Assembly: GCA_021513695.1 (NCBI GenBank)
Contig: CP084166.1
Location: forward strand, 288,001-352,000
Length of the DNA: 64,000 nt
Reading direction: 5' to 3'
Origin: Candidatus Heimdallarchaeum aukensis
GTDB taxonomy: Archaea; Asgardarchaeota; Heimdallarchaeia; Heimdallarchaeales; Heimdallarchaeaceae
Part shown: positions 15,861 through 64,000 of the stretch, piece by piece
Numbering within the stretch: the first letter of the stretch is position 1
Layout of the letters: each line of letters begins with the position of its first letter
The notes under the pieces: model-generated
What the model saw: the letters and a program-made list of their open reading frames with translations, nothing else
Database searches by the model: none
Told to the model about the DNA's origin: nothing
Made by a program: the position numbers and the translations under genes

Positions 15861-15882
15861 TTTAAATCGTTTTTTAAAGGAT

Positions 15883-23845: not shown

Positions 23846-24991
23846 TTAATATACTCCCAATTGTTCATCTTTTTTTAGTATTCTTCTAGGGTTCCTAATT
23901 CCGTCTCTATTGCTGTAAATACCTTTTCCTTTTATTAATTCTCCATAGTCCCCATATTGAATTAAAGCTGGTATCACACATTCGGGGCTTACTCTTTGGC
24001 TAACTACTGTTCCTTCTTCACCATAGCTCCCTCGTTGACTAATGTCATTTTCATCTTTAGTTATGAACATATTCATTCTTTCCCAAGGATAATAATCTAA
24101 ATCATAATTATCATTGGGTAATTCTGTTTGCATTGTTGGTCCAAAAAGTGATTGTCCGTAGTATCCTGCAAGAGGTAATTGTAATTCTTCTTTAACTAGT
24201 CTATGTGTCTCCTGAGACATTGGAACACCCCCATGAATAATTGCTTTAAGATTTCCTTGCTCTTTCATTTTTTTGATTATAGGATACATTTTTTCAATAA
24301 TTACACCAGTTGTAATAACAATTCCTATGTTACTGAATTCTTGTTCTATCAAATTCTGTACTTGAAAATTCATATTTTCTAGGTATAGCTTCGCTGCATT
24401 TGGATCTTTCATCATTGCGACTTTTATAAATCGAGGATCAAGGTCTATGTGATAAATCATTGATTCCATATCTCTATCCCAGTACTTTATTACCCACTTT
24501 CCAGCCATATGTGGGCCTGTAGGAAGCATTGATAAAACATTCAACCCTCTTGGGATTTTGTGTGCATCAATCATTTGTAAAGCTGCTTGACTAGCAACAG
24601 GAAAAGTAGGTGTTTCAATATCGTATGGGTCTAATTCTCCTGGGAGAAGTGTCATATCTTCTAGAAAGACAGTTTTTTTTGGCTTGCCTGTTGTTCCTCC
24701 AGTTTCAACTAAAGGAGTAGATCTATATCTATTCTTCTTTGCCCACTGAAAAGCCCATTTAGTAGTTGTATGGTAAATAGACTTTCTAAACTCATCAGGG
24801 TTTACATTGCCAAAAAACTCTGCAAGTTCAACCCAGTTTCTAACATCACCTTTTTTTACATTTTTCTCCTTTGCTAGATTAATCATCATAGGAGAGCCAT
24901 ATTGTTCATCAATAGCGATATTTACGCATTCTTCAATAAAATCACTTATTTGATTTTTACTTGCTGTTTTACTTTTGGTCTCTGTAATCAT
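23846..24991 (-). CDS. Adenylate-forming enzyme of the PaaK / coenzyme-F390-synthetase / LuxE (acyl-protein synthetase) superfamily.
   Basis: AMP-binding P-loop VETGGTTGKPKKTV, compare PaaK SSGTTGKPT and LuxE TSSGTNG. The 381 aa length resembles LuxE. Confidence 0.5.
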   Translation of the reverse strand: MITETKSKTASKNQISDFIEECVNIAIDEQYGSPMMINLAKEKNVKKGDVRNWVELAEFFGNVNPDEFRKSIYHTTTKWAFQWAKKNRYRSTPLVETGGTTGKPKKTVFLEDMTLLPGELDPYDIETPTFPVASQAALQMIDAHKIPRGLNVLSMLPTGPHMAGKWVIKYWDRDMESMIYHIDLDPRFIKVAMMKDPNAAKLYLENMNFQVQNLIEQEFSNIGIVITTGVIIEKMYPIIKKMKEQGNLKAIIHGGVPMSQETHRLVKEELQLPLAGYYGQSLFGPTMQTELPNDNYDLDYYPWERMNMFITKDENDISQRGSYGEEGTVVSQRVSPECVIPALIQYGDYGELIKGKGIYSNRDGIRNPRRILKKDEQLGVY

Positions 24992-30844: not shown

Positions 30845-31684
30845 ATGGAAAATGAAGAAACTCTAATAAATGAGCTGAAAAGTGGTTTCGGAACTATAGG
30901 GGTTACTTCTCTTGTAGCTTTTATTTTTAATCTTGCTTTTCTAATTTTTCAGCTAAGCTATTTAAGTAATTATTCACATAATAATTTATCATATAGTAAC
31001 TATTATTTAATATATATTGGCGGTAGTAGTATTTCTTCATTGTTGTTTACTCTGATTTACTTTAGTTTTTTGTACTTAAGCAGAAAGATAGATGAAATAG
31101 AAAAAAGCAAAGAAAACACTATATTTAGAATATCAACAACTATTGCAATTTTGATAATATTCTTTAATATTGGATTCTTTTTAGCTCAATTCTTAGTTGT
31201 AAATGCTGATCAATATTCTGATATTTTTAGTATATCTTACATTATTTTGCAGATATGCTTCATTTTCGTTTATATCTTCTTTGCTCTTTCAATAAGTAAA
31301 ATGAATAGTAAAATGGAAGTTGGAGTAATTATTTGGCCAATTGTAATATATGCAACTATTAACTCAATCGGAGCAATATTTAGGCTAATAATTCAAACTC
31401 TTATTATACTACAACTCTCTTCTTCTGCTTTATTCACCAGCATACTATATTCTTTCTTTAAAAGTATTGATCTAGTTGTTGAATTAATATTTATTATAAC
31501 CATGTTCTTTGTAGCAAACAATGCTCAAATTTCTTTATTACATCAAGTACCACGATATACTTCTTATGCATATTCAGGACCTGTATATAAATCCAAACAA
31601 TCAACTAATTTTTGTCCTTTTTGTGGAACAGAAAATTCTCCTGATTCAAAATTTTGTATAAACTGTGGAAAAAGGATAGATTAG
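30845..31684 (+). CDS. Polytopic membrane protein with a C-terminal cytoplasmic zinc ribbon. This is paralog 1 of a tandem pair.
   Basis: Six to seven TM helices. C-terminal CPFCGTENSPDSKFCINCGKRID is a CxxC...CxxC zinc ribbon. Confidence 0.55.
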   Translation: MENEETLINELKSGFGTIGVTSLVAFIFNLAFLIFQLSYLSNYSHNNLSYSNYYLIYIGGSSISSLLFTLIYFSFLYLSRKIDEIEKSKENTIFRISTTIAILIIFFNIGFFLAQFLVVNADQYSDIFSISYIILQICFIFVYIFFALSISKMNSKMEVGVIIWPIVIYATINSIGAIFRLIIQTLIILQLSSSALFTSILYSFFKSIDLVVELIFIITMFFVANNAQISLLHQVPRYTSYAYSGPVYKSKQSTNFCPFCGTENSPDSKFCINCGKRID

Positions 31685-31962
31685 ATTCTCTACCATTTAT
31701 CTTTTTATTTTGCTATAGAAATCCAAACATCAAAAAAATTTTACTAGTTGATTTATAGGTTATTTTTTAATCCTCACAAAAAAGAATGATCTCTGAAAAT
31801 TTTTTGCTTAAATTTTCACTCGAACTTAAAAATTATCTACACTGAAGTTGAAATAAATTATTAATTAAAAAGTATCTTTAGTTTAATTTTCTATAGTTTT
31901 ATTAAGAAGCATGAAAAAATATATTGAAAGCTTTATATATTTGGATTTGTAGCCTTATATTT

Positions 31963-32808
31963 ATGAAAAATGAAGAACTTCTAATTAATGATTTGAAGCT
32001 AGGTTTCAGAAAAATAGGATTTGTTTCAATCTTAACTCTGGCTTTTAGTCTTGCTTTTGTAATTATTCAACTTAACTATGTAAGTAAAATGTCACATGGT
32101 ATAAGTCTTTATTTAGTATATCTAGTAGGGAATATTCTTTCTTTATTGTTTTTAGCTCTAATTTATTTTGCTTTTCTATACTTAAGTGGAAAGATAAATA
32201 AAATAGAGAAAAGTAAAGAAAATACTATATTTAGCACAGTAACGATAATTGCAGTAGTGTTAATATTCTTCGATATTGGATTATTTTTAGGTCAATTTTT
32301 ACTTAGCTTTTCCAATATGCAATTTTCTAATATATTATCCATTATTTATGTTATTTTTTACATTATTTTGTTACTAAGTTCTTTTTTTGTATATATCTTC
32401 TTTCCTCTTTCAATAAATAAAATGAATAGTAAAATGGAAATTGGAGTAATTACCTGGCCAATTGTTATATATGCAATTGTTAATTCAATTGGAGTAATGA
32501 TAAGAATAATAGCACAAGTTTTCATTGTTTTACAAATTACTCCTATGGCTGTATTTACAAGTATTCTCTATTCTATCTTTCAATTTATAAATCTGGCTGT
32601 TGAATTAATGTTTATTATAAGCATGTTTTTTGTAGCTAACAATGCTCAAATTTCTTCATTACATCAAGTACCACAATATGTTCCTTCTGCATATTCAGGG
32701 CCTGTAGATAAATCTAAACAACCAACATTTTGTCCTTTTTGTGGAGCACAAAATTCTCCTGATTCAAAGTTTTGTATAAACTGTGGAAAGAAGATAGATT
32801 CGAATTAG
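31963..32808 (+). CDS. Polytopic membrane protein with a C-terminal zinc ribbon. This is paralog 2 of the tandem pair. I placed the start at the ATG (MKNEELLINDL), which aligns with the paralog 1 N-terminus; the track started at the TTG at 31924.
   Basis: MKNEELLINDLKLGF versus MENEETLINELKSGF. The two are collinear throughout. Zinc ribbon: CPFCGAQNSPDSKFCINCGKKIDSN. Confidence 0.55.
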   Translation: MKNEELLINDLKLGFRKIGFVSILTLAFSLAFVIIQLNYVSKMSHGISLYLVYLVGNILSLLFLALIYFAFLYLSGKINKIEKSKENTIFSTVTIIAVVLIFFDIGLFLGQFLLSFSNMQFSNILSIIYVIFYIILLLSSFFVYIFFPLSINKMNSKMEIGVITWPIVIYAIVNSIGVMIRIIAQVFIVLQITPMAVFTSILYSIFQFINLAVELMFIISMFFVANNAQISSLHQVPQYVPSAYSGPVDKSKQPTFCPFCGAQNSPDSKFCINCGKKIDSN

Positions 32809-37164: not shown

Positions 37165-38199
37165 TTGAGATATGTAAAATTAAAAAAAGAAAAAATTAGA
37201 GAGTTCTTGCTTGCTCTACAAGACTATGGGGAACTTTATGCACCAATTAAGGTTTCGGAGAAATATTTTGATTTTAGAAGGATTACAAATGAGCAAGTAG
37301 ACGAAGTAGTTTTAGATTACAATCGTACTCTTCGTCCTCCGAGGAGATTTTTCTTTCCTGAAAAAGAAGTATTGTTTACCTTTAACAGCAAAAAAGTAGA
37401 AATGTACGAGAATAAAGAAGCTTTTACTTCTGAACCTGTGGTCTTATTTGGAGTACATGCATGTGATATTGTTGGTTTACGGATAATGGATTCAAGATTT
37501 ATAGATGATCAGCCAGATCCTTATTATCGAGCTAGAAGAGAGAAAGGAATAATTATTGGTATTAGTTGTTTACCTGATGAATACTGTTTTTGTAATGTTC
37601 GAAGAGCTGAGTTTGTAGATAGCGGTTTTGATTTGTTTTTAAGTGAAGTAGAAGATGGTTATGTCATTCGTGTAGGTAGTGTAAAAGGGCATAAGATAAT
37701 TGATGCAACAGAGCATCTTTATGTTAAAGTAACAAAGAAAGATAGTGATGACTTAACTGCTTTTGATGTCAAAAAAAGTAAAATGTTTACAGTTTCTGGA
37801 AATTGGGACTCTTTACGATATACTCTCGAACTAAATGATGAACATCCAGTTATTTGGATGAGAGAAAGTGAAAAGTGTTTGGGGTGTGGAAACTGTACCA
37901 TTACTTGTCCTACTTGTAGATGTTATGATGTAAAAGATTATCCCAACTTAGACGGAGAAACAGGTGTTAGAGTAAGAATATGGGATTCATGCCAATTCAG
38001 AGAACATGGATTAGTTGCAGGAGGACATAATTTTCGACCAACAAAAGAAAGTAGGTTCAAGAACAGATACATGTGCAAAAATGCTTATTGTAAAGAAGTT
38101 ACAACAGCATATTGTGTCGGTTGTGGAAGATGTACGTATTTCTGTCCTGCTGGTATAAATTACAAGCAGAATTTAATTGAAATTAGAGGTGGAATTTAA
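37165..38199 (+). CDS. hydB: Group 3b [NiFe]-hydrogenase (sulfhydrogenase) beta subunit, FeS protein.
   Basis: MRYVKL N-terminus as in the Pyrococcus sulfhydrogenase beta subunit. Two ferredoxin-like 4Fe-4S motifs: CLGCGNCTITCPTCRC and CVGCGRCTYFCPAG. TTG start preceded by GGAGAG 10 nt upstream. Confidence 0.75.
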   Translation: MRYVKLKKEKIREFLLALQDYGELYAPIKVSEKYFDFRRITNEQVDEVVLDYNRTLRPPRRFFFPEKEVLFTFNSKKVEMYENKEAFTSEPVVLFGVHACDIVGLRIMDSRFIDDQPDPYYRARREKGIIIGISCLPDEYCFCNVRRAEFVDSGFDLFLSEVEDGYVIRVGSVKGHKIIDATEHLYVKVTKKDSDDLTAFDVKKSKMFTVSGNWDSLRYTLELNDEHPVIWMRESEKCLGCGNCTITCPTCRCYDVKDYPNLDGETGVRVRIWDSCQFREHGLVAGGHNFRPTKESRFKNRYMCKNAYCKEVTTAYCVGCGRCTYFCPAGINYKQNLIEIRGGI

Positions 38200-39086
38200 T
38201 GACTGAAGAATCACATAGAAGATACATTCCTGATGGTCAAGATAACTTGTACGATACACATAAATGTAGAGTACTTCGTGTTTATAAGCAAACTGAAATG
38301 GATAAAGTGTTTTTATTCAGGTTCGTAGATCAAGAAGTCGGTAAAAATTGGAAGTTTAAACCAGGGCAATTTGTAGAATTATCTCTACCTGGAATAGGTG
38401 AAGTGCCAATTTCAATATGTTCTTCTGCAATGCGTATTGGATTCTTTCAATTATGTATTAGAAAAGCAGGAAGGGTTACAACGAAGATACATGAGTTGAA
38501 ACCTGGAGATATCGTGGGAATAAGAGGACCTTATGGAAATGGTTTTCCAATGGAGAAATTTTTTGGAAGAAATCTCTTGCTTGTTGCAGCAGGATTAGGA
38601 ATGGCCCCCTTACGTTCTGTTTTCCTATATGCAATAGATAATAGATGGAGATTCGGAGATATAACTATTATTAACTCTGCTAAATATGAAAGAGAACTCT
38701 TATTTGCAAGAGAGTTAGAAGCTATGAGAGATATAGCAGAAGCAGAAAATATACAAATTATTCAGACAGTAACAAGAGAAGACAGTCCTAATAGATTGAA
38801 GGGTAGAGCTTCAGAGCATTTAGATAAAGTAATGATAGATCCAAAGAATAGTACAGTAGCGTTATGTGGTCCTCCAAGAATGTATAAGAGTATGTTTGAA
38901 AAATTAGTTGAAATGAATTATGATCCACGGAGAATATTTGTAACTCTAGAAAGAAGAATGAAGTGTGGAATAGGAAAGTGTGGGCACTGTAATCTCGGAA
39001 ACTCCACTTCTTGGAAATACGCTTGTATTGATGGTCCTGTTTTTGACTACTACGATATCATCAGCACCCCAGGAATGTTAGAATAG
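38199..39086 (+). CDS. hydG: Sulfhydrogenase gamma subunit: FAD/NAD(P)-binding oxidoreductase with a 2Fe-2S cluster.
   Basis: Flavoprotein-pyridine-nucleotide-reductase-like domain, with GxGxAP in LVAAGLGMAP. C-terminal cluster motif CGIGKCGHC. The start overlaps the hydB stop (ATGA). Confidence 0.75.
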   Translation: MTEESHRRYIPDGQDNLYDTHKCRVLRVYKQTEMDKVFLFRFVDQEVGKNWKFKPGQFVELSLPGIGEVPISICSSAMRIGFFQLCIRKAGRVTTKIHELKPGDIVGIRGPYGNGFPMEKFFGRNLLLVAAGLGMAPLRSVFLYAIDNRWRFGDITIINSAKYERELLFARELEAMRDIAEAENIQIIQTVTREDSPNRLKGRASEHLDKVMIDPKNSTVALCGPPRMYKSMFEKLVEMNYDPRRIFVTLERRMKCGIGKCGHCNLGNSTSWKYACIDGPVFDYYDIISTPGMLE

Positions 39087-39097
39087 GAGGAAAAAAA

Positions 39098-39952
39098 ATG
39101 TCGATGAAAACAACAATAATCCCTGAAGATCAGAAGATAGAAATAAAAGAGGAAACTAAAAGAAAACCTACAATTGGAGTTTATGCTTTGACTTCTTGTT
39201 ATGGTTGTCAATTAAAAATAGCTACTGTTTCAAAGATTCTTGAGATTGCTGAAAGTGTAGACATAGAAAGCTTTTACATGTTATCTTCTGATAGCAGTAT
39301 ACATAAGAAAGTCGATATCGCTTTTGTTGAAGGTTCTGTTTCAACAAAGAAAGATTTAGAAGAATTACTCGAGATAAGAAAAAATAGTAAAACTCTAGTG
39401 GGTGTAGGAGCTTGTGCTTTACAGGGCGGTGTCCAAAGCTGGAGTAATGGTATTAAGAGCTATGATGAGCTTTTTGAAAATGTATATGGAAAAAACAAGA
39501 TTGAGATATCAGAAGCTATAGAAGCAAAACCGATAGAAGAATATGTTGAAGTTGATTTTAGATTACCTGGTTGTCCTCCTGAAGAAGAAGAAATAATTTA
39601 TTTCATCTCTACTTTCCTATTTGGTTCATGGCCAGAAGAAAAAGACTATCCTGTATGTCAAGAGTGCAGATTCGCAGGAAATATTTGTTTGCTTATTGAA
39701 AAGAATGAGCCTTGTTTAGGTTCAATAACAACTGCAGGATGCAATGCACGTTGTATCTCATATAATGTTCCTTGTATTGGATGTCGAGGACCTGTACCTA
39801 ACGATGTAGCATGGTTTGATTCTCTAGCAAAAGTCTTTGTAGAGAAAGGATTTACAGAAGAGTATATCAGAGAAAGAATGAAGATCTTCGGTTCTCACCA
39901 TCCTAAATTAGAAGAGTTGTTAGCTAAAGTTTTTGGAGGAGAAAAAAAATGA
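39098..39952 (+). CDS. hydD: [NiFe]-hydrogenase small (delta) subunit, NuoB-like FeS protein.
   Basis: ALTSCYGCQ proximal-cluster motif, plus further Cys ligands (GACALQGG, CPP, C..C..C). Confidence 0.75.
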   Translation: MSMKTTIIPEDQKIEIKEETKRKPTIGVYALTSCYGCQLKIATVSKILEIAESVDIESFYMLSSDSSIHKKVDIAFVEGSVSTKKDLEELLEIRKNSKTLVGVGACALQGGVQSWSNGIKSYDELFENVYGKNKIEISEAIEAKPIEEYVEVDFRLPGCPPEEEEIIYFISTFLFGSWPEEKDYPVCQECRFAGNICLLIEKNEPCLGSITTAGCNARCISYNVPCIGCRGPVPNDVAWFDSLAKVFVEKGFTEEYIRERMKIFGSHHPKLEELLAKVFGGEKK

Positions 39953-41259
39953 CAACAATAAAATTTACACAACCTATAACCGTTGATCATATTGCGAGGA
40001 TTGAAGGAAAGGCAGGAATAGAAGTACAAATTAATGATAAAAAAGAAGTAGAAGTTAAAGTAAATATCTTTGAAGGTCCTCGTCTTTTTGAAAGTATAGT
40101 AATAGGAAAGAGTGTAGAGGAGGCAACAGCGGTATTTCCGAGAGTATGCTCTTTTTGTGCTGCTGCACATAAAATAACAGGATTGCTAGCTGCTGAAGAT
40201 GCTATTGGTTTACAAGTTTCAGAGCAAACAAGCAAAATAAGAGAACTAATGTATATTGGTGATATGATTGAAAGTCATGCTTTACATCTATTTTTACTAG
40301 CTTTACCTGACTTCCTAGGTTATCCAGATGGAATAAGCATGGGCAAAGAACACCCTTCTGTAATTAAAGCAGCTCTTCAACTGAAAGATTTAGGTGCTAT
40401 TATTCAAACAATTACAGGTTCTAGATATATTCATCAAGAGAATGCTTTAATGGGTGGTTTTGGAAAAATACCTACAAAGGCTAAACTAAACGAAATTATT
40501 AAACTCTTACATGATTCTAAAGATGTTTCTACTGTTGCACTTGAGCAATTTGCAAAGTATGAATTGTGGGAAGAAGTAAGTTCAGAGAGACTACATCTAG
40601 CTTTAGAACCAAAAAACGATGTTTATGGAATAATAGGAGAGAAAATAAAAGCAAGTGATGGAACAAGTTTTAATGCCAATGAATACATGAAAAATATAGA
40701 AGAAAGAGTTGTTCCACATTCATTCGCAAAGCATTCAAGTTATAAAGGAAAGAGGTTCACAACAGGAGCTCTATCAAGAATAACTTTGTTCAATTCTTTG
40801 TTAAATGACAAAAGCAAAGAGTTATACAGCAACTATAACAATTTCATTGATGCTAATAATCCACTATCTAACAATATAGCCCAAGCAATTGAATTAAGTT
40901 ATTTCATAGACCGCGCAGAAGAGTTAACTTTAGACATATTAGAGAATTATAAGGATGAGCAGCGTATAAAGCCTACTTTTAAAGAGGGTATAGGTTATGC
41001 CGTAACAGAAGCTCCTAGAGGGTTGCTAGCTTACATGATTAGTGTAAATGACGAGGGTAAAGTAACAAAAGCAGATATCATTACTCCTACTGCAATGTTC
41101 CTAGCACAAAAAGAAGTAGACTTGAAAAAAATGACAGAATCCATGATTGAGAAAGGAGTTGAAGATCCTTCAGAAATAAGTAAGAAATTAGAAACAATAG
41201 TCAGGTCTTATGATCCTTGTGTGTCCTGTAGTGTTCATGTTACTAAATTAAGAAAATAA
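39949..41259 (+). CDS. hydA: [NiFe]-hydrogenase large (alpha) subunit.
   Basis: N-terminal NiFe ligand motif RVCSFCAAAH (RxCxxCxxxH). C-terminal DPCVSCSVH followed by a short extension that the maturation protease removes. Translationally coupled: ATGA overlap with hydD. Confidence 0.8.
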   Translation: MTTIKFTQPITVDHIARIEGKAGIEVQINDKKEVEVKVNIFEGPRLFESIVIGKSVEEATAVFPRVCSFCAAAHKITGLLAAEDAIGLQVSEQTSKIRELMYIGDMIESHALHLFLLALPDFLGYPDGISMGKEHPSVIKAALQLKDLGAIIQTITGSRYIHQENALMGGFGKIPTKAKLNEIIKLLHDSKDVSTVALEQFAKYELWEEVSSERLHLALEPKNDVYGIIGEKIKASDGTSFNANEYMKNIEERVVPHSFAKHSSYKGKRFTTGALSRITLFNSLLNDKSKELYSNYNNFIDANNPLSNNIAQAIELSYFIDRAEELTLDILENYKDEQRIKPTFKEGIGYAVTEAPRGLLAYMISVNDEGKVTKADIITPTAMFLAQKEVDLKKMTESMIEKGVEDPSEISKKLETIVRSYDPCVSCSVHVTKLRK

Positions 41260-41720
41260 TGATTTATATGAACAAAACACTTATTCTTTCCCTTGGTAGT
41301 AGAGTAATGTCAGATGACGCTATTGGACATGTCATTGTTCAAAACCTTCAACAAAAGAAAGTTAAAGCTGATATTATTCAATTAGATACTGATATTTTCA
41401 AATTAAACTTATTTTTTGATAATCATAAAAGAATAATAATCATCGACGCTATTCAAAGCAGTGATTCACCAGGGACAGTTCATGTAATTCCTTTTCATGA
41501 TTTTGAAAAGGAGATCGAAGGAAAAATTAGAGGAAGTCATTTTTTGGACATGAAAGAAGGTTTAGAACTTCTGCGTATAGCTAACTCCAAAATTGCTGAA
41601 GCTGAAATATTTTTAGTAGGTATAGTTATTAAAAAAATTGAACTAGGAACGGATTTAACTCCAGTTTTATTAAAAAAAATTGATGAAGTTTGTAATATTA
41701 TATCTGATCTTATAATATAG
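41259..41720 (+). CDS. hycI: Hydrogenase maturation endopeptidase (HycI/HybD family).
   Basis: LGSRVMSDDAIGHVIV matches the GNxxxxDDGxG motif. The 153 aa length fits. It sits immediately after the large subunit. Confidence 0.7.
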   Translation: MIYMNKTLILSLGSRVMSDDAIGHVIVQNLQQKKVKADIIQLDTDIFKLNLFFDNHKRIIIIDAIQSSDSPGTVHVIPFHDFEKEIEGKIRGSHFLDMKEGLELLRIANSKIAEAEIFLVGIVIKKIELGTDLTPVLLKKIDEVCNIISDLII

Positions 41721-57537: not shown

Positions 57538-57960
57538 TTAAAAAATTATATTCAGAAGTTCAATGAATAGATCTTTTGAAAACTCTTGATTTACTACTGG
57601 AAAAGCAAAAACCCATTTTCCAGATTTTTCTAAACGAATTATCCTTGACTCAGATAAAATTTTTAGGTGATGTGAAACAGTAGATTGAGAAAGTTCTAGA
57701 AGAAACTCTATTTCACAAGAGCATCTAACTCCTGACATAATTAATTGAAGTATTGCTAGCCTAGTTTTGCTCCCTAAAGCTTTGAATACTTTTTCATATT
57801 CTAATACACTTCTTTCATTTATAAAATTACAAATCATGTCTTTTAGTTCTTTCAGTTTTTTTAGTCTATCTTCTTCTGTCTCAGGTATAATGCCAATTTC
57901 GGTTAGTTCACTTAATTTATTCTTAAGTTCTGTATCTGTTTTTTTATTGTAATTTTTCAT
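57538..57960 (-). CDS. arsR: ArsR/SmtB-family metalloregulatory transcription factor with an N-terminal coiled-coil extension.
   Basis: HTH region FKALGSKTRLAILQLIMSGVRCSCEIEFLLELSQSTVSHHLKIL, with a CxC metal site before the recognition helix. Confidence 0.75.
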   Translation of the reverse strand: MKNYNKKTDTELKNKLSELTEIGIIPETEEDRLKKLKELKDMICNFINERSVLEYEKVFKALGSKTRLAILQLIMSGVRCSCEIEFLLELSQSTVSHHLKILSESRIIRLEKSGKWVFAFPVVNQEFSKDLFIELLNIIF

Positions 57961-58142
57961 GATTTTAACCTTTGATTGCTATAATTGAAAATTGTACTTT
58001 TTAAATAAATATCTTTTCTATTTCAACCTTTTTCTGTTTTTTCATTTTTTAATTTGCTTTAAGCTTATTTTATCTCTTTTTAGCTTGATTATAACTAAGT
58101 ATGCTGCGATATATTTAAATACATCTATTTGAACAACCGCGT

Positions 58143-59174
58143 ATGAGTAGAAAAAATTTAGGACTATTAGATAAATATTTACCTATTTGGATAGGTTTAA
58201 CTATGGTTTTTGGAGTAATGTTAGGAAAATTTGCTCCTAAAGTAGCAGAAATAATAGACAGTGTTAAAATAGATACAGTATCTGTACCCATTGCTATAGG
58301 GCTTTTATGGATGATGTATCCTGTTTTAGCAAAAGTCAATTATGAAAAAATCCCCCAAGTGACAAGAGATTGGAAAGTATTTACTTATTCGATAATTCTT
58401 AACTGGGCAGTGGGACCATTTCTAATGTATGGGCTAGCAAAATTATTTTTGTCTAATTATCCAGAATATCAAATAGGTCTAATTATTGTTGGAATAGCTC
58501 GATGCATTGCAATGGTTCTTATCTGGAATTTACTTGCAGAAGGAGATAACGAAAAAGCAGCTATACTAGTTGCCCTAAATTCAGTTATGCAGATTTTCTT
58601 ATATTCCGTTTATGCTTATTTTCTAATTGGAACGCATATAAACATAACAATGTGGGATATTGCTAAAAATGTTCTAATTTATTTAGGTATTCCACTTTTA
58701 GCAGGTTTCTTAACTAGATTTATTCTCATTCGAGTAAAAGATCAAGAGTGGTATGACAATAAATTTATGCCTAAATTGTCTCCAACAGCAATGATTGGGC
58801 TACTCTTTACAATTGTCGTTATGTTTGCTATGCAAGGAGAGACTATAGTAGATAATCCTTTAGACATTCTAATTATAGCTGTTCCTTTAACTTTATACTT
58901 TCTAATAATGTTCTTGGCTAGCATTTTTTCTTCCAAACTCCTAGGCTTTAAATATAAAGACAGTGTCACAATCTCTTTTACAGCAGCAAGTAACAATTTC
59001 GAATTAGCTATTGCTGTTGCAGTAGGGTTATTTACTATTACATCAAAACAAGCTTTAGCAACAACTGTTGGACCTTTAATTGAAGTTCCTGTGTTATTAT
59101 CTCTTGTTTATTTTGCTAAATGGTCTAAGAGTTGGTTGTTCAAAGAAAAAGATGTATTAAATAAAAGTAAATGA
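58143..59174 (+). CDS. acr3: Arsenite efflux permease, ACR3 family.
   Basis: N-terminal LGLLDKYLPIWIGLTMVFGVMLGKFAP, typical of Acr3 (LSFLDRYLTxWI..). Ten TM helices, 343 aa. Confidence 0.8.
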   Translation: MSRKNLGLLDKYLPIWIGLTMVFGVMLGKFAPKVAEIIDSVKIDTVSVPIAIGLLWMMYPVLAKVNYEKIPQVTRDWKVFTYSIILNWAVGPFLMYGLAKLFLSNYPEYQIGLIIVGIARCIAMVLIWNLLAEGDNEKAAILVALNSVMQIFLYSVYAYFLIGTHINITMWDIAKNVLIYLGIPLLAGFLTRFILIRVKDQEWYDNKFMPKLSPTAMIGLLFTIVVMFAMQGETIVDNPLDILIIAVPLTLYFLIMFLASIFSSKLLGFKYKDSVTISFTAASNNFELAIAVAVGLFTITSKQALATTVGPLIEVPVLLSLVYFAKWSKSWLFKEKDVLNKSK

Positions 59175-59246
59175 AATTGTTAATTTTACTTTTTTGTCTT
59201 TTTTTAAAAGCAAACCTATTTATAGGATTTTATTTCAAAAATATTT

Positions 59247-59687
59247 ATGTCTGAGAAACTTATTATTGAATTAGAAGAACTGCTTATTCCGTATGCTCTT
59301 GAAAGATTTAGTTTTCAGAATAATCCCGCTGCTCAAATGATTGCATCAAATCCTCTTTTTAAATCAATGATTAAGAAGACTCTAACTCAAGCTGAGAACT
59401 ATATATCTGAATTTGTTAGTTGGCTCTGCAAAGCATTTGTAAGAGTTATTGTGAGTACAGATAGTTCAATTAAATTATCTGACATTGCTTCAGTTATTTT
59501 AGCTGAATCTTATTTAATGATGGATCTTCCTCCGTATGGGTATGTCAGTTCATCAAAAGATGGAGACAAATCTGATGCAAAAGTAATGGTTGAAATAGAG
59601 GTGCATAGATGGTTTGTCTTTCTTGAAAACGAAGGTAAATTACCTGGAAGATACAATCGATTTACAGGTATTTACTCTACTAATTAA
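59247..59687 (+). CDS. Hypothetical protein, 146 aa. It is not ArsC or ArsD-like.
   Basis: The ORF sits between acr3 and the methyltransferase. No CX5R motif or paired-Cys motifs. Confidence 0.4.
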   Translation: MSEKLIIELEELLIPYALERFSFQNNPAAQMIASNPLFKSMIKKTLTQAENYISEFVSWLCKAFVRVIVSTDSSIKLSDIASVILAESYLMMDLPPYGYVSSSKDGDKSDAKVMVEIEVHRWFVFLENEGKLPGRYNRFTGIYSTN

Positions 59688-59693
59688 CCATTT

Positions 59694-60278
59694 TTATTTT
59701 GTTGCTTCAAAAATAAATGTTGATTTGTTAGGTCTTTTTATATTTATGTCTTCAAAAGGATGATTTTTAACCATTTCTTCAAGTTCGAAAGGAGTAAGGA
59801 ATTTACTCTTGAACATTAAAATTTTTTCAAAAAGAATAAGAAAGAAGTTCCAAAAGTAAGATCTATCATAATCACGAATAATTAGTTTACCTTGTTTACC
59901 TAAAACATAATAGCAATCATCTATTGTTTCTTTTTGTTCTCTTATGTGGTGTATAGTGTCATTTAGAAAGATTTTATTTACACTATTGTTTTTTAAAGGA
60001 ATTTTGTTTGATAATCCTTGAATTAAAAAGAGAGATTTTGAAGATTTTTTAGCTTGTTTTAGCATTTCAATTGATCTTTCAAGTATGATACACTGGTTTA
60101 CTTCCTTTTCTAAAATTTTAGAAGCTCTTCCTGTTCCACCACCAATATCAAGCAAAATATCATTTTGATTTAAGTCTAAATATTCTTTTAAAGAATGGTA
60201 GTCAAAATCACCAATTAATTTATCGTAATAACTTGCGATTCTTGAAAACAAATCTTTTTTCTTTTTTTTCTTTGACAT
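59694..60278 (-). CDS. Class I SAM-dependent methyltransferase, short at 194 aa.
   Basis: Motif I: LLDIGGGTGRASKIL. Post-I acidic residue at ILERS. Confidence 0.6.
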   Translation of the reverse strand: MSKKKKKKDLFSRIASYYDKLIGDFDYHSLKEYLDLNQNDILLDIGGGTGRASKILEKEVNQCIILERSIEMLKQAKKSSKSLFLIQGLSNKIPLKNNSVNKIFLNDTIHHIREQKETIDDCYYVLGKQGKLIIRDYDRSYFWNFFLILFEKILMFKSKFLTPFELEEMVKNHPFEDINIKRPNKSTFIFEATK

Positions 60279-60353: not shown

Positions 60354-61103
60354 TTAACTGAAAAAGTCGTCATCATCTCTTTCTTGAATATCTCCAGGTC
60401 TAATAACTGGTTCAACTTTATATACAACTTTTCCTTTCCAATAGTATTCTCCTGTTTTATAGATTGGGTTTTTCCTTATATAAGCTAAAGTGCTTCTTGG
60501 TATTCCAAACTTGTTTGAAATCGTACTCATAGTAGCATTATCCTCGAACATTTGAAAGATCTCAATTAACTTTGGTCTCATCTCTTCATCAACTATAAGT
60601 TTTCCATTTTCAATTTTATAGCCTAATGGAGGTCTAGACATTATCTTTTGTTCTCCAATTCTTCGTTTAATACCATATTTCCTTTTTTCTCTATACTTTT
60701 TCAGTTCTTCTTCTCCTAAAATATCATAAATTCTAGTAACGAGTTGTTCTTGAGACTCTTCAGTTGCTCTAATTTCTACTCCCATGCTTCTTAGAATAAC
60801 AGTAGCGTAACCCAACATGTCTACTTGCCTTGAAATTCTATCTCTTGTTTGAACCCAAACTTCTCTTATTGGATCACCAGCATTATTCTTATTGTAAGTT
60901 CTAATGAATTCTAGCATCTTCTTGAAACCTGGTCTCTCTTCTACGTGACTATCACCACTCACTTCTTCATCAATAAAAGTTTCAATAACATGTCTATATC
61001 CAACTGACTTAATTTTTTGTCTAATTACTTCTTCTTGTGTACCTAATCCTGATTCTTGGTCTGCTGTACTCACTCTTAGATAACAAACAACATTAACATG
61101 CAT
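60354..61103 (-). CDS. Serine recombinase (resolvase/invertase catalytic domain plus the start of a 'recombinase' domain). It is short, at 249 aa, for a large serine recombinase, so it is either a compact archaeal form or a truncated one.
   Basis: Catalytic motif CYLRVSTADQ (Ser nucleophile), TRDRISR (DRLxR). The recombinase-domain start is SRPPLGYKIENGKLIVDEEMRPKLIEIFQMF...ISNKFGIP. The zinc ribbon and coiled coil are missing. Confidence 0.65.
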   Translation of the reverse strand: MHVNVVCYLRVSTADQESGLGTQEEVIRQKIKSVGYRHVIETFIDEEVSGDSHVEERPGFKKMLEFIRTYNKNNAGDPIREVWVQTRDRISRQVDMLGYATVILRSMGVEIRATEESQEQLVTRIYDILGEEELKKYREKRKYGIKRRIGEQKIMSRPPLGYKIENGKLIVDEEMRPKLIEIFQMFEDNATMSTISNKFGIPRSTLAYIRKNPIYKTGEYYWKGKVVYKVEPVIRPGDIQERDDDDFFS

Positions 61104-61212
61104 GGTTATAAGAAGGTAGGTACATATTAAAAAGCTTATGTAATACTCAAGTTTTATGGTTATTGTCGGAATTTTAGATATTTGTAGAAATGATGACCTT
61201 TAAAAACAAGCA

Positions 61213-62070
61213 ATGAGAGAAACACAAAAAGGAGAATTGATGTTAATGAGAGAAGAAGAACAAATTTGGGAAAAATTAACTAATTTTTTTGCTGACAAAT
61301 CTGTAGTTATTGCTTTTTCTGGTGGATTAGATAGCACAGTGTTGCTAGAAGCTGCACTTGAGAAAGCAAAGAAAGTTTTAGCAGTTTTTATCAAAACAGA
61401 TCTTATACAAAACGAAGATGAAGAAGTGGTAAAAGAATATACAAAAAAACGAAATGTAGAATTAAGGATATTTAGGATAAATCTGTTGGATAATAAAGAT
61501 GTTATTAAGAATGATGCAATAAGATGTTATTACTGTAAAAAAACATTATTCTCCAAAGTAAAAGAAGAGATGAGTAAGGAAAATTTTGATATTGTTGCAG
61601 AAGGAACAAACTTCACTGACCTCTCTGATTATCGCCCTGGATTGAAAGCAATAAAAGAATTAGAGATTTCTAGTCCATTCATTGAATTTGGTGTCAGTAA
61701 GGAGCAAATAAAAAAGATTGCAGAATATTACTCATTTCCAATTTTGAAAAAAGGAGCTACAACATGTTTGGCCACAAGAATCGCTTACAATATTGAAATA
61801 ACAAAAGAAAGACTAGAAAGAATAGAAGAAGCTGAAATATTTATTAACAACCTTGTAGAAGTAAGTTCTCTTCGTGTGAGAGACCATGGAGATCTTGCAA
61901 GAATAGAGGTTAATCCTTCTGCTATTGTAAAGTTAGTGGAACCAGAAATAAGAAAAAAAATCATAGAAACTTTTAACAAAAAAGGTTTCAAATACATTAC
62001 ACTAGACTTGGAAGGATATGTTCAAGGGAGTATGAACAGAGAGATTCAACAAGATACAAAGAATGAGTGA
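61213..62070 (+). CDS. larE: LarE-family PP-loop ATP-dependent sulfur transferase (nickel-pincer nucleotide cofactor biosynthesis).
   Basis: PP-loop VVIAFSGGLDSTVL. Conserved Cys in GATTCLATRIAY (CLASR-like). The true start may be Met10 or Met12. Confidence 0.65.
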   Translation: MRETQKGELMLMREEEQIWEKLTNFFADKSVVIAFSGGLDSTVLLEAALEKAKKVLAVFIKTDLIQNEDEEVVKEYTKKRNVELRIFRINLLDNKDVIKNDAIRCYYCKKTLFSKVKEEMSKENFDIVAEGTNFTDLSDYRPGLKAIKELEISSPFIEFGVSKEQIKKIAEYYSFPILKKGATTCLATRIAYNIEITKERLERIEEAEIFINNLVEVSSLRVRDHGDLARIEVNPSAIVKLVEPEIRKKIIETFNKKGFKYITLDLEGYVQGSMNREIQQDTKNE

Positions 62071-63292
62071 TAAAATGGAAGTTATTATTATTGATCCAAG
62101 ATTAGCAGGAGCATCAGGAGATATGCTCCTTTCTGCTATTGTTGATCTTGTGGGTAAAAAGCATCTTTTAGAGTTTATAGAACAACTAAATGAATACTTT
62201 AAAACAGGAGTTAGTATTAATATAAATAGAATAAAAAAGAAAGGCTTAAACTCTGTTTACCTTGAGATGGCAATTAATAGAGATATACCTTTTAATCATG
62301 TTGTAGACCTAAAAAGAGAACTAAACGGTTTTCTGGAGTATTTACCCATATCTTCAGAAGCAAAATCTAAAATAAAAGAAACTTTTCAACTAATTTTTGA
62401 AGCTGAGTCTATTGTACATAATAAACCATTAGAAACTTTACATCTTCATGAAACAGCAAGTATTGACACATTTTTAGATATAGTGGGGTTCTACTATCTA
62501 CTGGAAAAAAACAATTTGTTAAATGTACCTTTTCTAAGTCTCCCCATAAATACTGGTTCTGGTTTTATAGAAATCTCGCATGGAAAAGTTTCTGTACCTG
62601 CTCCTGCTGTAAGCGAAATAGCTAGGGCAAAAAGTCTATTAATTTTTTCCGATGAAACTAAAGGAGAGTTGTTAACTCCAACAGGAATAGCTATTATTGC
62701 TTCTGTTATTACTAAACAAATAGAAACACTTCCTCCAATGGTCATTAAAAAGATAGCTAGGGGAGCAGGAACAAAGAATCTAAAAAATAAAGCAAATGTT
62801 GTAACGCTATTTTTCTCTGATATCCCAGAAGACGAAAGTAAACATTATCTGTCTGTTCTAGAAACTCATGTGGATGATGTTTCAGGTGAAATACTAGGTT
62901 CAATTGTTTCTTTATTACTAGAAAAAGGAGCTCTAGATGTTTCATATTATCCTTTAGTTATGAAGAAAAATCGCCCTGCTTGGAATTTGAGAATTATTTG
63001 TGAAAAAGATAAATCTTCAGAACTTGCACATTTTGTAATGCTCGAATTGGGAACTTTAGGAGTAAGGGAGACAATAGTTACAAGATATGAGTTAGAAAGA
63101 CAAATTACTATAAAAAAAGTTGAAATCAATGGGAAAATCTTTGAATGTAGATTCAAGGAAAGGAAGGTACAAGGAGAAATAGTAGGAGCTAAACCAGAAT
63201 ATGAAGACATGAAGAGAATATCCAACGAAACTGGAATTCCTCTTATTGATTTGGAAAAGCAATTACAACGACAATATTCAATAGGTGAGTAA
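62063..63292 (+). CDS. larC: LarC-family (DUF111) nickel insertase / CTP-dependent nickel chelatase.
   Basis: N-terminal VIIIDPRLAGASGDMLLSAIVDL (GxSGDM motif). Length 409 aa. It overlaps larE by 8 nt. Confidence 0.7.
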   Translation: MSDKMEVIIIDPRLAGASGDMLLSAIVDLVGKKHLLEFIEQLNEYFKTGVSININRIKKKGLNSVYLEMAINRDIPFNHVVDLKRELNGFLEYLPISSEAKSKIKETFQLIFEAESIVHNKPLETLHLHETASIDTFLDIVGFYYLLEKNNLLNVPFLSLPINTGSGFIEISHGKVSVPAPAVSEIARAKSLLIFSDETKGELLTPTGIAIIASVITKQIETLPPMVIKKIARGAGTKNLKNKANVVTLFFSDIPEDESKHYLSVLETHVDDVSGEILGSIVSLLLEKGALDVSYYPLVMKKNRPAWNLRIICEKDKSSELAHFVMLELGTLGVRETIVTRYELERQITIKKVEINGKIFECRFKERKVQGEIVGAKPEYEDMKRISNETGIPLIDLEKQLQRQYSIGE

Positions 63293-64000
63293 ATGAAAAG
63301 AAGAGAGATACTTGAGAAGATATACAAAAATGAGATTACAGTGGAAGAAGCTGAAGATTTGCTTTCAAAAAACAATATTGAAGTTGTAGATGAATTTCTA
63401 AGATTTGATATTTTCAGAGAGCAAAGAACAAGCATACCTGAAATTGTTTATGCAGAAACAAAAAGTCCTGAAAATGTAGCTGAAATTGTAAAAAAAATTG
63501 CTTTAAAAAAAGAAATTTTGTTAGTCTCTCGAACTACAGAAAAACATGTTAAAAAATTAAAAGAGATAGAAGATTCGCTAAAAGATTTCAATTTTGAATA
63601 TGGCCCAGAAGAAAGATTTTGTTTAGTAAAAAAGAAAGGATATAAAGTAAAAAAAGAAAATGGAAAAGTAGGTATTATCACTGCAGGAACGTCTGACATT
63701 CCAGTAGCAACAGAAGCAAAAGTTGTTGCTGAAATGATGGGTTGTGAAACTATTTTGATAAATGATGTTGGAGTAGCTGGATTACATAGACTATTTGAAC
63801 CACTGAATTCTATTCTAAAGGAAAAAGTAGATGTTTTAATCGTTGCAGCAGGAATGGAAGGGGCTTTGCCGACAGTTATTGCAGGATTAGTAGATATCCC
63901 AGTAATTGGATTGCCAATCTCCACAGGTTATGGATTTGGAGGAAAAGGCCAAACAGCTTTAATGAGTATGCTACAAACTTGTGCACTAGGGTTGGCAGTA
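63293..64000 (+). CDS. larB: LarB-family pyridinium-3,5-biscarboxylic acid mononucleotide synthase (PurE-like carboxylase/hydrolase). It is 3'-partial and runs off the window.
   Basis: Translating from the ATG at 63293 gives an open frame to 64000. PurE-like motif GKVGIITAGTSDIPVATEAKVVAEMMG...NDVGVAGLHRL. Confidence 0.7.
   Translation, partial: MKRREILEKIYKNEITVEEAEDLLSKNNIEVVDEFLRFDIFREQRTSIPEIVYAETKSPENVAEIVKKIALKKEILLVSRTTEKHVKKLKEIEDSLKDFNFEYGPEERFCLVKKKGYKVKKENGKVGIITAGTSDIPVATEAKVVAEMMGCETILINDVGVAGLHRLFEPLNSILKEKVDVLIVAAGMEGALPTVIAGLVDIPVIGLPISTGYGFGGKGQTALMSMLQTCALGLAV

Follow-up and report, generated by a model that had tools for sequence, protein, structure and literature searches.

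The three genes at the end of the window (the whole 64-kb stretch of DNA analyzed) are larE, larC, and larB, a vertically inherited set that would make NPN, the nickel-pincer nucleotide cofactor, for a client enzyme probably encoded elsewhere in the genome; the serine recombinase gene beside them is a conserved neighbor and not a vehicle of recent transfer. The probability of this reading as a whole is put at roughly 0.9. The genes are arranged as follows:

61213-62070, plus strand: larE, 285 aa as the longest ORF; TIGR00268, 256.9 bits (cut-off 150)
62063-63292, plus strand: larC, 409 aa, one ORF that fuses LarC1 and LarC2; PF01969 (Ni_insertion), E = 1.9e-98
63293-64000, plus strand: larB, 236 aa in the window and 261 aa in full on contigs L001 and L003; NF033503, 222.9 bits (cut-off 175)

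A larE-larC-larB operon in a Heimdallarchaeaceae archaeon

All three Lar proteins scored above the cut-offs of NCBIfam equivalog models in a profile search, confirming the larE-larC-larB assignment that had been made from the sequence alone, and each of the motifs quoted in that sequence-only reading was recovered (SGGLDS at LarE residue 36, TCLATR at LarE residue 184, GASGDM at LarC residue 16, AGTSD at LarB residue 131, and GVAGLHR at LarB residue 160). The three ORFs are co-directional on the plus strand; larE and larC overlap by 8 nt, and the larB start codon stands right after the larC stop (gap of 0 nt). Since their stop and start codons overlap or abut, larE, larC, and larB form one operon, and the three are translationally coupled. 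The last gene, larB, runs past the end of the window, which leaves 236 of the 261 residues of LarB, with the NF033503 cut-off passed despite the missing end. The start of larE is ambiguous (61213, 61240, or 61246): the true start is likely the ATG at 61240, which gives 276 aa and has a GGAG 8 nt upstream, with the ATG at 61246 possible too; the NCBI gene call on the identical contigs L001 and L002 also gives a LarE of 276 aa.

The archaeal host that had been proposed proved to be a member of the Heimdallarchaeaceae, in the Heimdall group of the Asgard archaea, and its LarC and that of Ca. Heimdallarchaeum endolithica share 91% identity. Three MAG contigs from NCBI carry an identical operon, and the closed genome of Ca. 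H. endolithica has the operon too, with proteins that are 82-92% identical. The locus is an ordinary NPN-cofactor operon that was annotated before, the NCBI pipeline naming lar genes in Heimdall MAGs. The result matters little beyond correct annotation, because NPN biosynthesis genes are widespread and already named by NCBI in these MAGs, and it is published that the LarA superfamily is highly prevalent across the Asgard group (PMC11770544). The host group comprises the archaea closest to eukaryotes.

Conserved residues of LarE, LarC, and LarB

LarE contains the PP-loop ATP-binding motif SGGxDS as SGGLDS (residues 36-41) and exactly three cysteines, C105, C108, and C185, which form a CxxC...C pattern. 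Its best solved relative was 8cnz (E = 1.1e-29), and 5udq was matched as well; the segments RCYYCKK and TCLATR align with RCYNCKK and TCMATR of 8cnz. In Thermotoga maritima LarE, the CxxC...C cysteines bind a [4Fe-4S] cluster that is needed for sulfur transfer (PMC9283937). The PP-loop motif and the CxxC...C pattern are both shared with T. maritima LarE and 8cnz, and both cysteine segments align; however, T. maritima LarE has a fourth nearby cysteine whereas the present LarE has three, and identity to [4Fe-4S]-dependent LarE is ~35-40%, the cluster here being predicted from sequence. Because its three cysteines fall in the CxxC...C pattern, LarE is probably of the [4Fe-4S]-dependent, catalytic type and not of the sacrificial type of L. 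plantarum, which has a single sacrificial Cys176 and SWYYAKK in contrast to the triad and RCYYCKK found here. The single active-site cysteine without CxxC that marks the sacrificial subclass is not what this LarE has, and with an enzyme of the Fe-S-dependent type, the word “sacrificial” in the NCBIfam label is probably wrong here. The cysteine of CLATR to which the sequence-only reading had drawn attention is present, but as part of the CxxC...C triad and not as a lone sacrificial residue.

PF01969 spans LarC residues 9-395, and both domains are present, LarC1 at residues 89-250 (TIGR00299, 144.2 bits, cut-off 90) and LarC2 at residues 264-384 (NF052512, 116.7 bits, cut-off 50). The solved relatives found by sequence were 12bi and 6bwo, with LarC residues 14-396 aligning with the full-length Moorella thermoacetica LarC (12bi); the two proteins share the single-chain LarC1-linker-LarC2 organization, although overall similarity is modest (127.7 bits). 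Residues were mapped by reading the HMMER alignment by eye, and counterparts of the entire histidine patch and acidic pocket of M. thermoacetica LarC were found: H119, H127, H129, and H173 align with H108, H116, H118, and H160 of the patch, and D20, E115, E130, D135, D139, and E202 align with D15, E104, E119, D124, D128, and E187 of the pocket. The patch and pocket residues are essential in the M. thermoacetica enzyme (PDB 12bi; PMC13510736). One difference is R71, whose substitution reduces the activity of M. thermoacetica LarC and which is replaced by Asn in the LarC described here.

Over residues 5-256, the full 261-aa LarB of contigs L001 and L003 could be aligned with that of L. plantarum (7mj0, E = 1.9e-40). 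Its C230, in the segment MLQTCALG, aligns with the cysteine of MLNSCASG in 7mj0, in the position of the near-C-terminal active-site cysteine, which we take to be Cys221 of the L. plantarum protein.

Predicted NPN pathway and comparison with the Lactiplantibacillus-type operon

In the predicted pathway, LarB, as an NaAD C5-carboxylase/hydrolase, would carboxylate C5 of the NaAD pyridinium ring and hydrolyze the phosphoanhydride to yield P2CMN. LarE, an ATP-dependent PP-loop sulfur insertase, would adenylylate each carboxylate in turn and replace oxygen by sulfur, converting P2CMN to P2TMN; a [4Fe-4S] cluster, most likely held by C105, C108, and C185 and carrying a non-core sulfide, would permit LarE to turn over without sacrificing a cysteine. 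LarC, a CTP-dependent nickel insertase (cyclometallase), would then CMPylate P2TMN and insert Ni(II) to form NPN, which would probably be passed to at least one LarA-family 2-hydroxyacid racemase or epimerase encoded elsewhere in the genome.

LarB, LarC, and LarE are homologous over near-full length to 7mj0, 6bwo, and 5udq, respectively, and the chemistry from NaAD to NPN, as predicted here, is the same as in L. plantarum. The L. plantarum operon, however, is organized as larA-larB-larC1/C2-larD-larE and accompanied by larR and larMNQO, whereas in the window no larA, larD, larR, or nickel transporter adjoins the lar genes, the gene order is E-C-B, and LarC is encoded by one ORF with no C1/C2 frameshift.

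The client enzyme

No LarA was in view in the sequence-only reading, and this held for the whole 64-kb window. The LarA N-terminal family (PF09861/COG3875) had no match among window ORFs of at least 140 aa in a Pfam scan, in which one near-duplicate paralog and a 2469-aa repeat protein were inspected by eye only, and searches by phmmer --max and tblastn for which the query was L. plantarum LarA, itself checked on 5huq (945 bits), returned nothing from the window or from the ~100 fetched loci. The suggestion that the client may lie downstream fared less well. In the sister contigs and in H. endolithica, larB is followed by genes for a 518-aa multi-pass membrane protein (with a weak, below-cut-off Pfam match, E = 0.034), a NosD/beta-helix protein, SufC, SufBD, and a GH2 glycosidase; no LarA lies within 10 kb downstream of larB in either, the family being absent from the Pfam-annotated genes of that interval in the closed H. 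endolithica genome (CP084167.1). The SufC and SufBD genes are ~6 kb downstream in H. endolithica, and a functional tie between them and an Fe-S-dependent LarE was considered and found unsupported, with unrelated genes lying between. The Heimdallarchaeum genome paper mentions neither a racemase nor LarA, in its text or its supplements.

The client is probably encoded elsewhere in the genome, because an unlinked larA is not unusual, none of ~70 fetched bacterial larBCE loci having a LarA match within 10 kb, and because LarA homologs occur in seven of the eight Asgard genomes in the COG database, with a mean of 2.8 per genome (PMC11770544 and its supplement). The lactate permease homolog that had been placed ~45 kb upstream was verified (15781-17574; PF02652, E = 6.9e-41), and the enrichment that yielded Ca. 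H. endolithica was fed lactate (PMC8813620). Taken together, the operon, the permease, and the lactate-fed enrichment of a sister species are a small testable lead on 2-hydroxyacid metabolism.

It is unlikely that the genome has no LarA-family gene at all and that NPN serves a client unlike LarA, as proposed for cyanobacteria. Such a client would suit the lack of a LarA homolog over a contiguous ~74 kb made up of the window and the downstream flank on L005, as well as the ~15% of surveyed genomes that have larB, larC, and larE but no larA (PMC11796402), and a candidate might be sought in the short-chain dehydrogenase (SDR) gene that overlaps the larB stop codon in other Heimdall lineages (L007, 12032-12823). 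However, the SDR gene is kept at the lar-less AB_125-type locus L010 and is thus independent of NPN, and the bacterial loci and the Asgard genomes cited above both weigh against the proposal, in that unlinked larA appears common and LarA homologs are numerous in this group. The likeness to larBCE-only genomes (e.g., those of cyanobacteria; PMC11796402) consists of biosynthetic genes without a linked LarA gene; in those genomes LarA is absent genome-wide, whereas the scope here is the 64-kb window and, in a sister genome, the 10 kb that follow larB, and Asgard genomes, unlike them, usually carry LarA homologs.

The neighboring serine recombinase and the divergent intergenic region

The operon shares an intergenic region with the divergent recombinase gene:

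60354-61103, minus strand: serine recombinase, 249 aa; PF00239 (Resolvase), E = 5.4e-18
61104-61239, no strand: divergent intergenic region, with the sequence read directly and aligned across 10 lineages

The recombinase adjoins the lar cluster as originally described, ending its gene 109 nt from the longest larE ORF (61213) and 136 nt from the ATG at 61240. The 249-aa protein belongs to the serine recombinase superfamily, having the nucleophilic serine, the conserved arginines, and a matching fold; an alignment of 31 sequences shows conservation of at least 90% for R9, S11, and the DRISR segment (D87-R88-x-S90-R91). It had no match in the PDB by sequence and was placed by fold search alone. 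The best Foldseek matches to its AF2 model (pLDDT 83) are the Bxb1, PhiC31, and TP901-1 integrases, with a probability of 1.00 for Bxb1, ISC1926 TnpA, TP901-1, and gamma-delta resolvase, and the modeled C-terminal part matches the recombinase domain of 4kis. The PHROG families that it matched are annotated as integrase and DNA invertase, and it matched Pfam Recombinase (PF07508) faintly (E = 0.12). With the large serine recombinases (the Bxb1, PhiC31, TP901-1, and A118 integrases) it has in common the catalytic domain, the long E-helix, and a superposing C-terminal domain; however, it is not one of them, since it ends at residue 249 after a helix/hairpin domain of ~90 residues and has no zinc-ribbon or coiled-coil domain. 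Also in contrast to that group, it is restricted to the Heimdallarchaeaceae, is unusually conserved, and in most loci lacks a recognizable mobile element around it.

The order of recombinase followed by larE-larC-larB was found at 12 independent Heimdall loci, and wherever a Heimdall lar locus has enough flank, the recombinase is found next to larECB. It is also the most conserved protein of the neighborhood (73-78% identity versus 31-75% for the others). The recombinase is a conserved chromosomal neighbor of lar in the Heimdallarchaeaceae that is not needed for NPN synthesis; a recombinase beside a gene cluster is not in itself evidence of transfer, and at this locus no other gene is as well conserved. 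In AB_125-type genomes, larECB is missing at exactly this junction. Relatives of the recombinase also occur on DNA of element-like character, among it a repeat unit of 10,172 bp; for the ORFs carried there, PHROGs yielded nothing informative, and a 146-aa neighbor was unmatched in both Pfam and PHROGs.

On the plus strand, toward larE, the intergenic region contains an A/T-rich TATA-like box and the GGAG, and on the minus strand, toward the recombinase, it contains another TATA-like box. Promoter roles for these boxes are suggested by their sequence, and the lar operon would probably be transcribed from the TATA-like box in the 136-nt region that it has in common with the divergent recombinase gene. 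A conserved motif, TTCCGACAATAA, read on the minus strand, lies at plus-strand coordinates 61160-61171, and the 10-lineage alignment shows that GTATTACA, TTATAAAAAG, and ACCTTCT, which are proximal to the recombinase, are conserved. In seven lineages, a YCCGAYAAWA motif stands 66-88 nt upstream of the recombinase start. A second copy of the conserved intergenic 12-mer was not found above expectation (11 matches at two or fewer mismatches versus 8.3 expected).

Functional coupling of the recombinase to lar, for example if NPN synthesis were switched or lost through site-specific inversion or excision in the intergenic region between them, is distinctly unlikely. It would account for a divergent pairing kept in 12 loci across lineages, for the high conservation of the recombinase relative to its neighbors, and for the variable DNA beyond the motif upstream of the recombinase start, where one finds larE directly, an additional pair of small genes, or a gene for an S8 peptidase; L010 and L096, which keep the recombinase and have no lar at exactly this junction, would also fit. 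However, such loci retain the recombinase and the motif upstream of it in the absence of lar, and lar is therefore not required for the function of the recombinase. In addition, the window contains no second motif copy and no inverted repeats, the window and H. endolithica are collinear across the intergenic region, and shared ancestry alone can explain the synteny. A broader form of the idea is just as doubtful and is offered as speculation: the recombinase could be a domesticated host gene specific to the Heimdallarchaeaceae, as opposed to a mobile-element relic, and programmed site-specific recombination at or near YCCGAYAAWA could switch, excise, or exchange adjoining DNA, including larECB.

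Inheritance of lar and the adjacent ars genes

The lar genes are separated by the recombinase from two arsenic-resistance-type genes:

57538-57960, strand not given: ArsR, confirmed by profile search
58143-59174, strand not given: Acr3; TIGR00832, 409 bits

The larE-larC-larB genes are vertically inherited and were not brought by the neighboring recombinase, contrary to the suggestion that lar and/or the ars genes had come by horizontal transfer. In GC, GC3, and codon usage, the genes for lar, the recombinase, and ars all fall within the window's own distribution (lar GC3 of 0.17-0.22 versus a window mean of 0.20, sd 0.03; codon-usage distances typical), and the compositional comparison proposed earlier thus gave no foreign signature. 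Direct and inverted repeats in the 54-64 kb interval were chance-level AT-rich matches only, and no RNA or tRNA genes were found in the window (Rfam at gathering thresholds, ARAGORN). The best 30 LarC matches were all from the Heimdall group, followed by other archaea, and in a neighbor-joining LarC tree the Heimdall sequences formed one clade and the bacterial sequences another. The neighborhood is syntenic across the family (F6, F7, the S8 peptidase, SDR, a luciferase-like gene, and others), and recombinase, larECB, and neighborhood remain syntenic even where LarC is ~54% identical. The nearest relatives of Acr3 are likewise from the Heimdallarchaeaceae (70-78% identity). Because LarA is absent from the 10 kb downstream and the phylogeny is archaeal and vertical, the claims of transfer and of a downstream client fail the refutation test that the sequence-only reading had set, and the annotation stands.

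A horizontally acquired island of lar and/or arsR-acr3, integrated by the adjoining serine recombinase, is disfavored and very improbable. Three observations could be cited for it: a recombinase whose catalytic residues look intact lies between the ars and lar genes, arsR, acr3, and a methyltransferase gene occupy this position only in the genus Heimdallarchaeum (the window and L015), and, as noted, relatives of the recombinase are found on element-like DNA. Against these stand the native composition and codon usage, flanking repeats that do not exceed chance, the absence of a tRNA gene, and a presence that is not patchy, none of which is expected of a genomic island, together with the synteny across divergent lineages, the placement of LarC in the Heimdall clade, the affiliation of Acr3, and a scan of viral contigs in which no relative of the recombinase was found.

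Specificity of the gene assignments

Profiles of other PP-loop families (TilS, GuaA, QueC, ArgG, and NadE) scored far under their own cut-offs on LarE, and the PurE model TIGR01162 gave 37 bits on LarB against a cut-off of 149.6. Misassigned paralogs, with a tRNA thiolase or other PP-loop ATPase taken for LarE and PurE for LarB, are disfavored to the point of being scarcely credible: Pfam by itself placed LarE in generic families only (ATP_bind_3, QueC, PAPS_reduct) and LarB in AIRC, but the family-specific equivalog models are far above their cut-offs while the rival models are far below theirs, both genes are translationally coupled with an unmistakable larC, and the best solved relatives of the two proteins are LarE and LarB themselves. 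The reassignment to PurE or to a tRNA thiolase that had been named as a possible objection is thus answered by the profile searches, and the Lar assignments stand.

Identity and organization of the lar operon

Three co-directional ORFs fill the final 2.9 kb of the window, and all three scored above the cut-offs of the corresponding NCBIfam equivalog models:

61213-62070, + strand: larE, 285 aa as the longest ORF (LarE equivalog, 256.9 bits; cut-off 150)
62063-63292, + strand: larC, 409 aa (LarC1 equivalog, 144.2 bits, cut-off 90; LarC2 equivalog, 116.7 bits, cut-off 50)
63293-window end, + strand: larB, 236 aa, truncated by the window end (LarB equivalog, 222.9 bits; cut-off 175)

Together with the presence of every motif quoted in the sequence-only reading, these scores bear out its assignment of the genes to LarE, LarC, and LarB. 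The larC product was also matched by Pfam Ni_insertion (E = 1.9e-98); TilS, QueC, GMP synthase, and PurE were rejected as identities for the Lar ORFs, with NCBIfam scores far under their cut-offs. The larC start precedes the larE stop codon by 8 nt and larB starts at the base directly after the larC stop codon, so that the three genes are translationally coupled within one operon. The LarC protein was found unchanged on three NCBI MAG contigs, where larB is complete (261 aa); on L001 and L002 among these, larE was called by NCBI as 276 aa, a length that fits initiation at the ATG at 61240, 8 nt downstream of a GGAG. The feature is an ordinary nickel-pincer nucleotide (NPN) biosynthesis operon that was already annotated, and that annotation is correct.

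Comparison with characterized Lar enzymes

The closest solved relative of LarE was 8cnz (E = 1.1e-29), followed by Lactiplantibacillus plantarum LarE (5udq). Only three cysteines occur in the window LarE (C105 and C108 within RCYYCKK; C185 within TCLATR), and Cys-containing segments of 8cnz align with both sites, whereas the L. plantarum enzyme has SWYYAKK at the first. In Thermotoga maritima LarE, a CxxC...C motif binds a [4Fe-4S] cluster needed for catalytic sulfur transfer (PMC9283937). Based on the three cysteines in this arrangement, the 8cnz alignment, and the T. maritima precedent, the window LarE is predicted to be of the Fe-S type rather than the sacrificial type, a useful, if predicted, correction. 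Full-length LarB aligned end to end with L. plantarum LarB (7mj0), C-terminal cysteine included, and residues 14-396 of LarC aligned with full-length Moorella thermoacetica LarC (12bi). The histidine-patch and acidic-pocket residues essential in the latter (PMC13510736) were all matched in the window LarC, except R71, which is Asn here.

Search for a client enzyme

The client of NPN, probably a LarA-family enzyme, had been suggested to lie possibly downstream; however, no LarA is encoded in the 10 kb past larB in the closed genome of the sister species, Ca. Heimdallarchaeum endolithica (CP084167.1, L005), which instead holds a 518-aa membrane protein, a small ORF, a NosD-like beta-helix protein, SufC, SufBD, and a GH2 glycosidase. 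No LarA domain was found among the window ORFs of ≥140 aa scanned against Pfam; two others, a near-duplicate paralogue and the repeat protein of 2469 aa, were inspected by eye only. Similarly, an L. plantarum LarA query, validated against 5huq (945 bits), gave no tblastn or phmmer --max match in the window or any fetched locus. Such a lack of linkage is not unusual: LarA was within 10 kb in 0 of ~70 fetched bacterial larBCE loci. LarA homologues are reported for seven of eight Asgard genomes at 2.8 per genome (PMC11770544 supplement), and ~15% of genomes overall are reported to carry larBCE without larA (PMC11796402). A client enzyme probably lies elsewhere in the Heimdallarchaeum genome. The lactate permease homologue noted upstream of the operon is present (15781-17574), and lactate was used to enrich the sister species (PMC8813620).

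In Ca. H. endolithica, the genes of a minimal Fe-S assembly system, SufC and SufBD, follow larB at a distance of ~5-6 kb (L005, 17381-19064). Since unrelated genes intervene, this nearness to the lar operon is probably coincidence.

The adjacent serine recombinase and inheritance of the operon

The gene beside larE encodes a recombinase:

60354-61103, - strand: serine recombinase, 249 aa, catalytically intact

Its predicted fold (pLDDT 83) was best matched by large serine recombinases, whose recombinase domain superposes on the C-terminal domain of the predicted model; the zinc-ribbon and coiled-coil parts of those enzymes are missing. The family comprises just 49 clusters, almost all of them 249 aa long and 60-96% identical, and was found only in the Heimdall group, to which all named clusters belong. 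Relatives were examined in the window, L007, L010, L012-L019, L021, L023, and L095-L104; in most of these loci the gene is chromosomal and beside larECB, and elsewhere it also occurs amid runs of small unannotated ORFs.

Proximity to this gene had raised the possibility that the lar and/or ars genes were acquired horizontally. The evidence argues against the recombinase marking a recent lar insertion. In 12 of 12 independent Heimdall lar loci with enough flank, window included, the recombinase is divergent from and adjoins larE, within a larger neighborhood that is syntenic across Heimdallarchaeaceae. Between lineages it is 73-78% identical without indels, compared with 46% for LarE, 54% for LarC, 60-68% for LarB, and 31-75% for other syntenic orthologues, making it the most conserved protein of its neighborhood across the family. 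Two lineages, the AB_125 type (L010) and L096, lack lar but keep the recombinase, and a YCCGAYAAWA motif is located 66-88 nt upstream of the recombinase gene in seven lineages, lar-less ones included.

Composition and phylogeny also spoke against horizontal acquisition. The lar, recombinase, and ars genes fell inside the spread of the window's other 36 genes in GC, GC3, and codon usage; no flanking repeats above chance level and no tRNA or Rfam matches were found in the window. The best LarC matches were from Ca. H. endolithica (91%) and other Heimdallarchaeaceae, then other archaea (33-41%), and bacterial LarC from fetched genome contigs were ~30% identical. In a neighbor-joining LarC tree without support values, the Heimdall sequences all formed one clade and the bacterial sequences another. 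Conservation of the recombinase, a finding to the side of the main question, may deserve separate study.

Recombinase relatives with 70-75% identity were located among runs of small unannotated ORFs. In one such contig, L014 (ENA ERZ4220366, NODE_1293, 15,935 bp), the outermost 2,683 bp at both ends of the fetched stretch are 100% identical, implying a unit of 10,172 bp that is either circular or tandemly repeated. This unit encodes a recombinase 70% identical to that of the window, along with ORFs lacking a Pfam or PHROG match, and it may represent a small Heimdall archaeal plasmid or virus.

Neighboring ars and accessory genes

The arsR, acr3, and SAM methyltransferase genes (57538-60278) are located between conserved neighbors in the genus Heimdallarchaeum only. 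The window Acr3 is intact (343 aa) and 100% identical to a protein labelled Candidatus Heimdallarchaeaceae archaeon by NCBI; its nearest relatives are from other Heimdallarchaeaceae (70-78% identity), giving no sign of recent bacterial origin. In Ca. H. endolithica, acr3 is broken into two pieces (170 aa and 129 aa) on assembly L004 and is uncalled on the closed genome (L005, 6084-7121), and is therefore probably a pseudogene.

A 146-aa protein (59247-59687, + strand) without a Pfam or PHROG match is the usual convergent neighbor of the recombinase in L010, L096, L097, L099, L103, and L104; in the window, the methyltransferase gene intervenes between the two. In other Heimdall lineages (L007, 11229-12823; also L016 and L018), the larB stop codon falls within a 4-nt overlap with a short-chain dehydrogenase gene, which thus looks co-transcribed with larECB; this gene is still present in the lar-less L010.

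Other features of the window

A 381-aa protein (23846-24991, - strand) contains a GGTTGKPK segment resembling adenylate-forming enzymes, with no significant Pfam match (AMP-binding, E = 0.066). Tandem paralogous membrane proteins (30845-31684 and 31924-32808, + strand) each end in a zinc ribbon, FCPFCG...CINCGK. The ORF at 5-7414 (+ strand) encodes a giant protein (at least 2469 aa) built from dozens of near-identical repeats rich in D/N/S/T (DSDGMPDGWEV...LDPL..DSS.D.DSD.LTNLEEY), which precede a transmembrane segment and a tail resembling a coiled coil; because this ORF begins at the edge of the window, the full protein may extend further. The window also contains a second nickel-dependent system, a five-gene cluster:

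37165-41720, + strand: [NiFe]-hydrogenase genes, encoding the Fe-S subunit, FAD/NAD-binding subunit, small subunit, large subunit, and HycI-type maturation protease
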